Shown here piece by piece: positions 52,990 to 57,281 of a stretch of 64,000 nucleotides of DNA (positions are counted from its first letter, which is position 1; every line of letters begins with the position of its first letter). A model generated the notes under the pieces. That model had not been told where the DNA came from. It worked only from the letters and a program-made list of their open reading frames with translations, and made no database searches. The translations under genes and the position numbers were made by a program. Source of the DNA: Ophelia neglecta (Eukaryota); NCBI GenBank assembly GCA_965285935.1, contig OZ260662.1, positions 80,662,001 to 80,726,000 on the forward strand. Reading direction: 5' to 3'.

Positions 52990-53472
52990 ATGATGAATTT
53001 AAAAGTATTGGCTGTACTAATGGCTACGATCTACTTGTTTACGTTTGCTAATACCTACCAAATTTACCGGATGAAGAGTAATCAGGCACCAAACAAAAAC
53101 CGCTCAAATTACGTTGCTTTATATGAAGATAAAACAAATTCAGTGGATCGAAATCATTCAAAGAACATGAACAATGATTCCAATACACGTCACCCATTGA
53201 TAACGAAAAAACGGAGTAGAACTATTGAAGTAAAGAGACGTCTGCGATGGAAAAAATTGTTTGAAGAAGATGGCCCCTTGATGACTCACGGATCTGCAAT
53301 GTGTCGGAAAGTGTGCTCATTCTGTAAACAAGCATTGTCCATGAAAATATCAGCTCTTTGTCACAACCAATGCTCCGGAAACAGGAAAGACAGAAGATAC
53401 TTCAAGGCATGCTTTTCTTTTTGGCTACAGGTACCTATTTTGTCCAATGTATTACTGAACCATTGCGTATAG
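52990..53472 (+). CDS. Secreted six-cysteine prohormone (eclosion hormone/CHH-like fold), paralog 1
   Basis: Signal peptide MMNLKVLAVLMATIYLFTFA (ATG 52990, within ORF 52921-53472), basic cleavage sites KKR/KRR/KK, and C-terminal C-x3-C-x2-C-x11-C-x3-C-x12-C ending F-x-A-C. Confidence 0.75.
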   Translation: MMNLKVLAVLMATIYLFTFANTYQIYRMKSNQAPNKNRSNYVALYEDKTNSVDRNHSKNMNNDSNTRHPLITKKRSRTIEVKRRLRWKKLFEEDGPLMTHGSAMCRKVCSFCKQALSMKISALCHNQCSGNRKDRRYFKACFSFWLQVPILSNVLLNHCV

Positions 53473-56400
53473 TCATGGATAAACATATCAAATTATCGAT
53501 GCCTCCTTCCGAGATAAAAAGCATGTATATTTTATAGATTTTTTTATTTTAAATGTTTTATTTTCAGAGTTTAAATTGGCTGTGGATGTTAATTTAGATC
53601 ACCGCCTTCGACCACACTGTTTTCTTTGAAAAATACAAATTGCATATAATGCTGGACTGTTGAATTGGTATTTGCTAAGTTCTAATTTCCGAATTAGATA
53701 TTGGACTTAAAACCGTACTTGGGACGATTTGATTTTTCAGTCACTACTTCTGCAAATACATTATCAAGATTTGGATTTATAATAGTGATACATTAACTAA
53801 ATAACAAGGAGAAGACTGATAGTTGGTGAAGGAGGTTCTTGGTGGAACAAATGAACTCAGTGTGCGCTTACTGTATATATGTAAGAAGTATATACAGTTA
53901 AGTAGCGGTGTCAGATGGAAAAAGTTGCGATGCGACATTTTTGTAACAGCATAGAAAGGGATGTGATCATTATATTAGGCGGTATGACCTCGAGAGTCCT
54001 CCCCCCAGTTTTTGATTCAAGCCACATCTGTTAAATTCAGATATAAATTTTGTTTTCCAGTGACAGTGACTCATTCAGTTCTTTATTTTCTATGGTACAA
54101 CATTGGAATGGGTTCTTCATGGAATTATTTTATAATATATTCACTTATAATTAAGTGCTGTTTAAACTTCTTTAATAATATGATTGCAGGGAGTTTGAGA
54201 AAACCAGAATTCAGCCGTTATCTGATATATATCTGGGTTTACTGAAGTTAGCGTTTTTTCAATGATGTCTTCAGACAGTAATAGAAACACGTTTACTCAT
54301 GAAGTATAGATAAAGCGATGTTTTTGAGGAAATTGATGTTTAAGCTTGCCACAATATGTATGAAAACCTGGATATGTATTTCTGCAAATAAAATAATACA
54401 TATAAACATTAAGACAATTGAGTCTTTGTAACTGATTTACTGTTGATAAATAAATAAGTTATGTTGTAGTTTTCTTGCCTCCACAAACCTAAAATGTGGT
54501 AGGTCTAAAACCGTTTTTATTTTAAACTGTGTCAAATTAAATAATATTTCATGATAGTCTTTTGTTGATAATCTGCATGCTGAGTTTATCTTGTGAAAGG
54601 AATCAAAATGAAGCTTCTCACGCCTGAATGGCTGTACTTTGAATGTATGTACTGACATTTCAGGTATTTCAGTGACTTCCCGGACTATAGATGTACTACT
54701 CAAATTGTCCTGCTGAATTGACATATAATTGATATGTTTGCACAAAACAACACATGTCTGGTGAGCGTCAGAGGAGAGTTTATTTATGCGAATCCATTTT
54801 CTTGGTTCACAGACTTTTTCAGCTGAATTTAAATGGGTCGGTTGATCGGTTTAATACAAAATAAAGTGGTCGGTCGAGTACAAAGTATTTACTTTCAAAA
54901 CATTACCACAGATAAGTATTATACTTCCAAAGTCGGGAGGTATTTTTAAATTGCTGCCAAATGCTACTCAATTTTACGCTATTCTAGGCAACAGATCCTC
55001 CATTCTCTGATCCTGAGATGATGCGACCAACGAATCCCGTCCCCTCTTTGCAATTTTTCATACTTCTACTAGTGTATTTTCGTAAGATTAGGTATTTTGC
55101 AGACAAACTCATTTTACAAGTTCTTGTAGAGGACGCATTAATGAGAGGAATAAGTAAGATGTAAACAAATTTAAAGAGAACTAAATCGTAAATAATTGTA
55201 CCTGACTCTGGGCTGTCCCCATAATGCAACAACGGCACTTTGTCTGGATGGAAATGGATGAGCATGTGCAATAAAAGAACTAGCTGCTGGAGAAGTTTAG
55301 ACCGGTTTTTGTGGTAGGTATGCGTACACGAAGTACTTTTTCAGAATTTTACTAAAACAACTCGAGGATTGGTGGTCACAATTATTTTTCAGTAATTCTC
55401 ACGAAATGAACGCGGTACAAATATAGGAATTTACAAAAATCGCGGAAATTGTATGTTTTCTTGGATAAAATGTTTATTTTAACCTTTATTTTGTCGTTTT
55501 CATTTGCATGCATACCTTTCGGAAATTGTTGAAGTTTTCAATCAGATATTTTGTTTATTTGGTTGCATATTTATTTAAATATCGGGAGGATTTCTTCTAA
55601 CAGGTGAGTATCCACGTGTTCTACATTACGTTGGAAAACTGCTCAGCGGTCAGTCAAGCATCGCCAGGGTTGTTTGATATTGTAATTTAAAATTATATGC
55701 GACACTTCGTCTAGAAGACATGACGATCTTCCAAGGTCACAAGAGAGCCAATTTTGGGGATTTTGTACTCTTCTAATAAGAACAGGGATTCGCGTTTTAT
55801 TTGTGGCCCTGCGACGGGATGTTCCTGATAATTTCCAAGAGATTTAGTTACCTATTATTGATAAATCATTTTGCTTTGTCTGCCGGGTTACCACGCCCCC
55901 TCCAGATTGTCGTTCATGATAGACTCCCCTGCGTCATTTCCACTGCCTTTTATCATCAATATGTTTAGCTCACACCAACAAACCGTATGTGTTGCATTTC
56001 TTCTTAACCATCAAACTCCCCAAGAATGTCGTCTCATACACTATTTATTTAAAATCATATAATCTATAAACACTATCAATGGCTAGAATTAAATTAAAAA
56101 AGAACAATTTCTGCAAATAAACTTTAGATAAAAGGGCCCCGACCGCCTTGTATCATTTCACTTTATTGTAACAGCCAACTCAATAGCATATAACTAATTC
56201 AATCATTCCTATAATCAGCTTCACATGTCCACAATCTATTGACCTTTCGACTTCTTTATGTTGCTCAGAAAAGAAGTTTCAACACTTTTATCAAACAGGG
56301 AGCAGGGACAAGGACATCTGCTTGTGTAATAACACATATAAATTTTCCCAAACTAAGATTCAAATCGGTGGTTTACAGTTCTGCTGACGTCAAATACCTA

Positions 56401-56861
56401 CATGATATAATGTTGGTTTGCTTGCTGTATTTGGGAGCAGAAACCAAAAAACCTCGCCAAATTACAATGCTTGCGCAACTGTTTGGAGGTTAAAGTCACG
56501 CGCTTATATATTTCAAATTAATTCTAATGAAATATATATGGCTAATATGCTTTTTCAATTTTGTAGGATTTATTCAAAATTCTAGCAGGTCACATTTTCT
56601 TTGTGTCAGTTTGCAATATCGAACTCCAAATCAAATAAATATGATTAAAATATGCCCTTTCATTTGTCCTTTTGCGAAACTGCTGCTGTGTCTCTTTTTT
56701 ATTGAAAAACATCCCACTTAGACGCTATAAAAGTATTTTATAACGAAATTTCATATCTAATCTTATTCTTAATCATGAAAGGAACTACAAAAGCACCACT
56801 CTGGATTAAACCGAGTGTAGAGCATATTAGAAAATCAAACAGTAGATGTTACTCAGAGCAC

Positions 56862-57281
56862 ATGATGAAACTATTCATTATAGCCTTTCTTCTTTTTACA
56901 TACTTGAAAACAAGTTCACTTAATTCGATAGGAAACAACAAACCTACAAGGGTATACCGGCCAATGTTGGAACTGTTGAGTAAAAGTGGCGCATCTGAGT
57001 ACCTTCACAAAGAAGGTTTACTGAACTTTAACTTACTCGAGTCGCCACCAGATACATCGGTAAATTATAACGACAATAGGATCCTTTCCAAACGCATGTA
57101 TAATATAGAAGATGGCGGCTATGTTCCCGGGGATAACCAGATCTGCAGGACGATATGTGATACCTGCTCCCGCTATTTGTCCATGCGGATATGGGCATTG
57201 TGTCCGTCTCACTGTGGGGAAGGTGAATGGGCCTTTCAAGCATGTCTCCGCGTCTGGCAGGCTTTACACAAAGGTAAGTAA
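56862..57281 (+). CDS. Secreted six-cysteine prohormone (eclosion hormone/CHH-like fold), paralog 2
   Basis: Signal peptide MMKLFIIAFLLFTYLKTSS (ATG 56862, within ORF 56775-57281), KR site, then C-x3-C-x2-C-x11-C-x3-C-x9-C. It shares EDG, CR..C..C...LSM.I.ALC...C and F.AC...W with paralog 1. Confidence 0.78.
   Translation: MMKLFIIAFLLFTYLKTSSLNSIGNNKPTRVYRPMLELLSKSGASEYLHKEGLLNFNLLESPPDTSVNYNDNRILSKRMYNIEDGGYVPGDNQICRTICDTCSRYLSMRIWALCPSHCGEGEWAFQACLRVWQALHKGK

Follow-up and report, generated by a model that had tools for sequence, protein, structure and literature searches.

A tandem pair of cysteine-rich precursor genes

The window analysed here is a 64-kb stretch of the genome of Ophelia neglecta (contig OZ260662.1, positions 80,662,001 to 80,726,000). 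On its forward strand, approximately 3.4 kb apart, lie two open reading frames (ORFs) encoding precursors of 160 aa (ORF1, P0001; 52990-53472) and 139 aa (ORF2, P0002; 56862-57281), each with a conserved six-cysteine domain towards its C-terminus. Both ORFs and their shared domain had been described in an initial annotation made from the letters of the DNA, and were recovered at the same coordinates. The two precursors aligned with 26% identity over 146 columns (pair E-value 3e-11), the likeness residing mostly in the C-terminal domain. The pattern C-x3-C-x2-C-x11-C-x3-C-x9..13-C occurred twice in the six reading frames of the window and not once in 100 shuffles. The DNA of the two gene regions was alike in nothing except a single 15-base match, and the duplication that produced the pair is therefore old.

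At its N-terminus each precursor has a hydrophobic stretch, with a highest 9-residue Kyte-Doolittle mean of 2.8 in ORF1 and 3.4 in ORF2, from which signal peptides of approximately residues 1-22 (52990-53055) and 1-19 (56862-56918), respectively, are predicted. Each frame also contains an in-frame ATG upstream, at 52921 and 56775, so the ORF starts were placed by reference to the hydrophobic stretch; that of ORF1 is uncertain. Dibasic sites had been ascribed to both precursors, which proved accurate in the plural for ORF1 only. In ORF1 a cluster of likely convertase cuts (residues 73-75, 82-84 and 88-89; 53206-53256) lies 15-30 residues N-terminal of the first cysteine, and RK and RR occur also within the loop between Cys5 and Cys6. 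ORF2 possesses one KR site (residues 77-78; 57090-57095), 16 residues ahead of the first cysteine, and its mature peptide is predicted to begin at 57096. The six-cysteine domain extends from C105 to W145 in ORF1 (53302-53424; spacing 3-2-11-3-12) and from C95 to W132 in ORF2 (57144-57257; spacing 3-2-11-3-9, with three predicted helices). On the family profile described below, ORF1 scored 53.0 bits and ORF2 56.3 bits, values that are partly circular for these ORFs. The six-cysteine description is accurate for the domain of both precursors, but ORF1 carries a seventh cysteine in its tail. The ORF1 peptide is basic. Three runs (contigs of one sample) span both ORFs without indels or joints and are uninformative on expression or splicing.

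The precursor family and its distribution

The pair belongs to a large gene family, which the initial annotation had missed. Seven loci were detected in searches of the genome: the pair in the window, three on contig C5 and one on each of contigs C9 and C12, so that five of the seven are dispersed rather than clustered; further searches added none. At every locus one open frame (7/7) encodes a hydrophobic start followed by a variable spacer and the six-cysteine domain. A profile built from six of the seven loci retrieved 173 clusters (50% identity, E ≤ 0.001), of which 150 were listed. The full six-cysteine motif was present in 144 of those listed, the other six being shortened, having longer gaps or lost cysteines, or representing a repeat. 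The gap between Cys3 and Cys4 is 11 residues in 141 of the 144, and 105 display the 11/9 spacing. Among these 105, Val or Ile precedes Cys2 (95%), Leu precedes Cys4 (92%), Gly stands at Cys5+4 (95%) and Tyr or Phe at Cys6-3 (94%), while Arg in the stretch between Cys3 and Cys4 (76%) and Trp at Cys6+4 (53%) are less constant. A stretch of R-W/V-S/A-A-L, occupying surface positions, is conserved in the family.

Cys1 lies at least 60 residues from the precursor start in 130 of the 144 members. KR or RR occurs within the 32 residues before Cys1 in 77 of 102 long precursors, compared with 32 of 102 for the segment farther upstream, an enrichment just before the domain. The proposal that the precursors are secreted and prohormone-like is supported. 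Two members are organised differently: P0060 contains two complete copies of the cysteine domain and P0078 two copies of which the first is divergent, in parallel with the two-ligand eclosion hormone (EH) precursor of the oyster.

Organism names were available for three of 30 matches looked up, namely KAK2155029 of Paralvinella palmiformis and ELU13348 and ELU16195 of Capitella teleta, all annotated as 'hypothetical' or 'uncharacterized'. A third Capitella member was found in a paper supplement, giving a total of at least three for this worm, and two Capitella members are present without annotation in the file of SignalP 4.0-positive candidates of PMC6425005. As judged from these sequences, the family has so far been seen only in annelids. 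The genome itself likewise points to an annelid, judging by these named homologues, by its Capitella-like EH and by the mitochondrial cox1, which reads under the invertebrate code (table 5). Within the domain, each of the seven paralogs is 55-74% identical to its nearest relative outside the genome and 42-53% identical to its nearest relative inside it. The paralogs are spread over different subgroups of a quick tree, the support of which is mostly weak (8 of 149 branches ≥ 95). Since they are closer to outside relatives than to one another and are scattered in the tree, the duplications within the family are old.

Pfam searches of both ORFs returned nothing meaningful. For the 144 aligned members, no EH, crustacean hyperglycaemic hormone (CHH) or opioid family was among the Pfam matches listed (25 of 65 families), and each remaining family matched at most one member. 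Searches of PDB sequences yielded one chance match and otherwise none, in keeping with the original description of the pair as unrecognised. Word-based protein searches, of poor sensitivity, gave no new candidate, their three matches all being known already, and none among proteins of 658-2000 aa, which is weak evidence. The ESM Atlas held no match at or above 0.9; the highest rows obtained with a Capitella member, at 0.76-0.79, were short neuropeptide precursors of vertebrates and amount to no more than a lead. Searches of the literature by text, motif and accession, and of supplements, found no description of the family by name; annelid neuropeptide surveys in subscription journals lay outside the search and could hold an earlier one. 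The family motif likewise led to no named description in the searched portions of the supplements of PMC6660194 and PMC8557429, and to no member in the EH set of the former as available (334 sequences, one of them annelid, the Capitella EH). Taken together, the sequences point to a real, conserved family of prohormone-like precursors that is apparently unnamed, despite detailed catalogues of annelid neuropeptides and a size of at least seven genes in this genome and at least three in Capitella.

Likeness to eclosion hormone and CHH/ITP

The pair had been likened initially to EH and to CHH and ion transport peptide (ITP). With EH (PF04736) the family shares the C-x3-C-x2-C start, the later C-x3-C, a total of six cysteines and three predicted helices. 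The genome nevertheless possesses an EH gene of its own (L014; G000:C1:109662277-109662390, reverse strand), which encodes 81 aa in one open frame, scores over the PF04736 cut-off and, in a count by eye, agrees with the published Capitella EH at approximately 30 of 50 positions. Searching the genome with PF04736 found this gene and no family locus. Its spacing is 3-2-13-3-11, and its cysteine domain lies near the signal peptide, whereas the family has a long propeptide. The gap between Cys3 and Cys4 is 12-13 residues in EH and 11 in the family, and the conserved residues differ. The EH gene scored -2.6 bits on the family profile, alignment of the family with EH by hhalign gave a probability of 0.3%, and in the quick tree the EH branch had a length of 5.0. 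One EH gene was found in the genome as opposed to at least seven family paralogs. At the level of sequence, the family is separate from EH, and EH membership is not supported.

Precursors of type I CHH consist of a signal peptide, a precursor-related peptide, a dibasic site and a six-cysteine mature peptide, with an intron after mature residue 40 (PMC7560641). The family precursors have this same layout, dibasic site included, and the long propeptide, earlier regarded as unusual, is thus not odd for the superfamily. A further point in common with CHH/ITP (PF01147) is the core C-x2-C-x11/12-C-x3-C-x8/9-C, with F/Y-x-A-C before the last helix, as in Daphnia ITP (PMC8557429 supplement); the predicted fold is helical, with weak structural matches. 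From Cys2 to Cys6 the spacing agrees to within one residue per gap, but the gap between Cys1 and Cys2 is 3 in the family and 15 in Daphnia ITP. The CHH intron falls inside the mature peptide, whereas the six cysteines of the family are encoded in one open frame at all seven loci, and known annelid relatives of CHH have four cysteines rather than six. PF01147 gave no match over the cut-off in the genome, and its one weak match was an unrelated ORF. The family thus falls outside both EH and CHH on sequence and on one cysteine gap each, and outside CHH on gene structure also.

A resemblance to the cysteine-rich domain of opioid precursors (synenkephalin, PF01160) had been suggested too. That domain has a comparable C-x3-C-x2-C...C-x3-C pattern and is N-terminal, whereas the family domain is C-terminal and is followed by no opioid or repeated peptides. 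PF01160 gave no match over the cut-off in the genome and none at any family locus, and the suggestion is not supported. CHH DREP (Koch et al. 2023, PMC10501145) is a spiralian CHH-like peptide with two disulfides that directly follows the signal peptide and has a phase-2 intron. The family resembles it in being spiralian and helical and in its structural neighbours (k-Ssm1a, Ta1a, CHH), but differs in its six cysteines, long propeptide and intronless domain. Both CHH DREP and CCRFamide were rejected as identities on cysteine number and layout. Platynereis CCRFamide, CCWamide and CLCCY are likewise cysteine-rich lophotrochozoan proneuropeptides; their cysteine counts and spacings are different, CCRFamide having four cysteines right behind the signal peptide (PMC3890597 supplement).

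The six-cysteine domain of ORF2 was modelled as three helices, a predicted fold weakly like that of CHH. The best small structural matches, themselves weak, were HAND toxins, offshoots of the CHH superfamily that include k-Ssm1a (2M35), Ssm6a (2MZ4) and Ta1a. Disulfides in HAND toxins link C1-C5, C2-C4 and C3-C6 (PMC7232367); by analogy the same pairing may be expected here, as the positions of the cysteines on the three helices, rather than the model itself, would also suggest. A model of the genome's EH, used as a control, was three-helical too and matched generic three-helix bundles with no CHH structure listed, which is not proof of a different fold.

These observations make it reasonably probable that the two genes are old paralogs of an unnamed, likely annelid family of six-cysteine precursors, and that their products are likely secreted, cleaved hormones of the EH/CHH-ITP superfamily. 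Three disulfides would form in the precursor on its way through the secretory pathway, a prohormone convertase would cut at the dibasic site, and a compact helical peptide of roughly 50-75 residues would be released. Common ancestry of the family with EH and CHH is held with moderate confidence; a common origin of EH and CHH/ITP has itself been suggested, although their cysteines are not fully alignable (PMC8398477, PMC5627052). Of the initial EH/CHH-like assignment, the EH-type cysteine start and a helical fold closest among small structures to the CHH superfamily were retained, while EH membership found no support, a separate EH gene being present.

If, instead, EH had duplicated in annelids and its copies had gained a long propeptide and diverged, the likeness to CHH would reflect the scaffold common to EH and CHH. 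The spacing from Cys1 to Cys5 (3-2-11-3) is indeed nearest to EH (3-2-12-3 in insects, 3-2-13-3 in the EH of this genome), both kinds of gene are open in a single frame throughout the coding region and have an acceptor-like site immediately 5' of the ATG (EH and four of seven family loci), two-domain precursors are known in both (P0060 and oyster EH), and both models are three-helical. Such an offshoot is nonetheless unlikely, given that no EH similarity was measurable outside the cysteines, that the EH branch is so long, that the Cys6 region resembles ITP and not EH, and that the family is missing from the available EH set of PMC6660194, in which one annelid is represented. Venoms have repeatedly recruited peptides of the CHH fold (PMC13311285), and the family peptides might similarly be released externally, be it as toxins, pheromones or defence peptides of the mucus, like the CHH-derived HAND toxins of centipedes and spiders. 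The HAND toxins' place as best small structural matches, the basic ORF1 peptide and the tandem arrangement of the pair favour this. We give it less credence still, as the paralogs are of old origin and find their nearest relatives outside this genome, five of the seven loci are dispersed, and members are present in Capitella and Paralvinella, which are not known to be venomous. The conserved surface positions (R-W/V-S/A-A-L) also depart from typical toxin diversification. Hence, of the new neurohormone, pheromone or toxin family first proposed, the new prohormone-like family stands and the toxin option is weakened.

The structure comparison scores behind placement in the EH/CHH superfamily were weak, and Foldseek gave no match. 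The domain could conceivably have no relation to EH and CHH and be a helical module, secreted and braced by disulfides, that is either convergent or a remote relative of the opioid cysteine domain and acts as a binding or matrix protein. This is the least credible of the alternatives, as five CHH-superfamily rows stood in the top 50 of 48,161 chains, dibasic sites are enriched ahead of the domain, and both the PF01160 result and the position of the domain speak against an opioid relative.

For the favoured superfamily hormones, a signalling role is rather likely; a variable spacer and a conserved helix 2/3 surface would fit a receptor ligand. EH acts via a receptor guanylyl cyclase (PMC5627052), and ITP uses a receptor guanylyl cyclase in Drosophila and G protein-coupled receptors in Bombyx (PMC13311285). 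By analogy, a membrane guanylyl cyclase is tentatively suggested as the receptor. The genome contains 167 cyclase-domain exon matches. At approximately 19.2-19.7 Mb of contig C5 (G000:C5), some ten or more genes with a cyclase domain are arrayed in tandem, which may represent a guanylyl cyclase expansion. It is possible, if rather doubtful, that the family is an overlooked, many-membered group of annelid hormones in which an EH-type first helix is joined to the core and precursor layout of CHH/ITP. The family would then form a spiralian branch, with six cysteines, of a single EH-CHH superfamily and supply ligands for orphan receptor guanylyl cyclases. If the peptides are hormones, they offer a whole ligand family to try on orphan receptors in tractable worms. 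The combination of EH's first cysteine gap with the CHH core and precursor layout bears on the question of EH-CHH/ITP origin.

Gene ends and neighbouring features

Putative exon and intron ends were read from the DNA, which also contains candidate 3' acceptors. A perfect splice-donor match, AAG/GTAAGT, lies over the last codons of ORF2 (57271-57279, forward strand). The window contains only two matches to MAGGTRAGT, against a chance expectation of 1.8, at 57271 and 55601; the latter site (55601-55609, forward) lies between the genes and possibly marks where a first, non-coding exon of the second gene ends. In ORF1 a putative donor-like site with five of seven consensus positions occurs six codons past the sixth cysteine (53428-53436, forward; candidate acceptor 53567), and the odd tail with the seventh cysteine is directly 3' of it. 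The true C-termini of both precursors may come from an additional exon, the last residues (13 in ORF1, two in ORF2) being intron read-through. As ORF2 ends on the perfect donor match, amidation at its Gly-Lys ('ALHK-GK') is doubtful, and the end of the C-terminal peptide earlier given as MYNIEDGG...ALHK may be wrong. Paralogs L002 and L006 end in Gly ahead of the stop, where amidation is possible; a C-terminal G, GK or GR was present in only nine of the 144 family matches outside the genome. A donor-like site 5' of ORF1 (52873-52881, forward) may likewise end a non-coding first exon, and a TATA-box-like site 5' of ORF2 (56726-56733, forward) is an alternative promoter candidate. Most family loci probably begin with a non-coding exon, because acceptor-like sites, a pyrimidine tract and AG within a few bases 5' of the ATG, abut the start codon in four of the five other paralogs.

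Elsewhere in the window, caveolin exons (PF01146) at 25426-25773 and 34191-34547, approximately 9 kb apart on the forward strand, likely belong to tandem caveolin genes. A single-frame glycosyltransferase family 61 gene of 453 aa (PF04577) occupies 15743-17104 on the forward strand, and exons of an M14 zinc carboxypeptidase lie at 5710-6559 on the reverse strand. An open frame of 215 aa at 50792-51439 (forward), with no Pfam match, resembles the GIY-YIG portion at the end of Penelope-type retroelements. High-copy repeats were found before the genes (52500-52680) and between them (approximately 55850-55990), at depths of up to approximately 17x background. Broken frames on the forward strand at approximately 57950-58450 and at 63345-63815, the latter with no Pfam match, resemble fragments of LINE endonuclease or reverse transcriptase. 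Outside the window, a mitochondrial contig (L017; G000:C223:3197-7537) uses code table 5 and has a T- and G-rich coding strand; cox1 was named by the tool, and the genes presumably run nad3-nad2-cox1-nad4L-nad4 on one strand.
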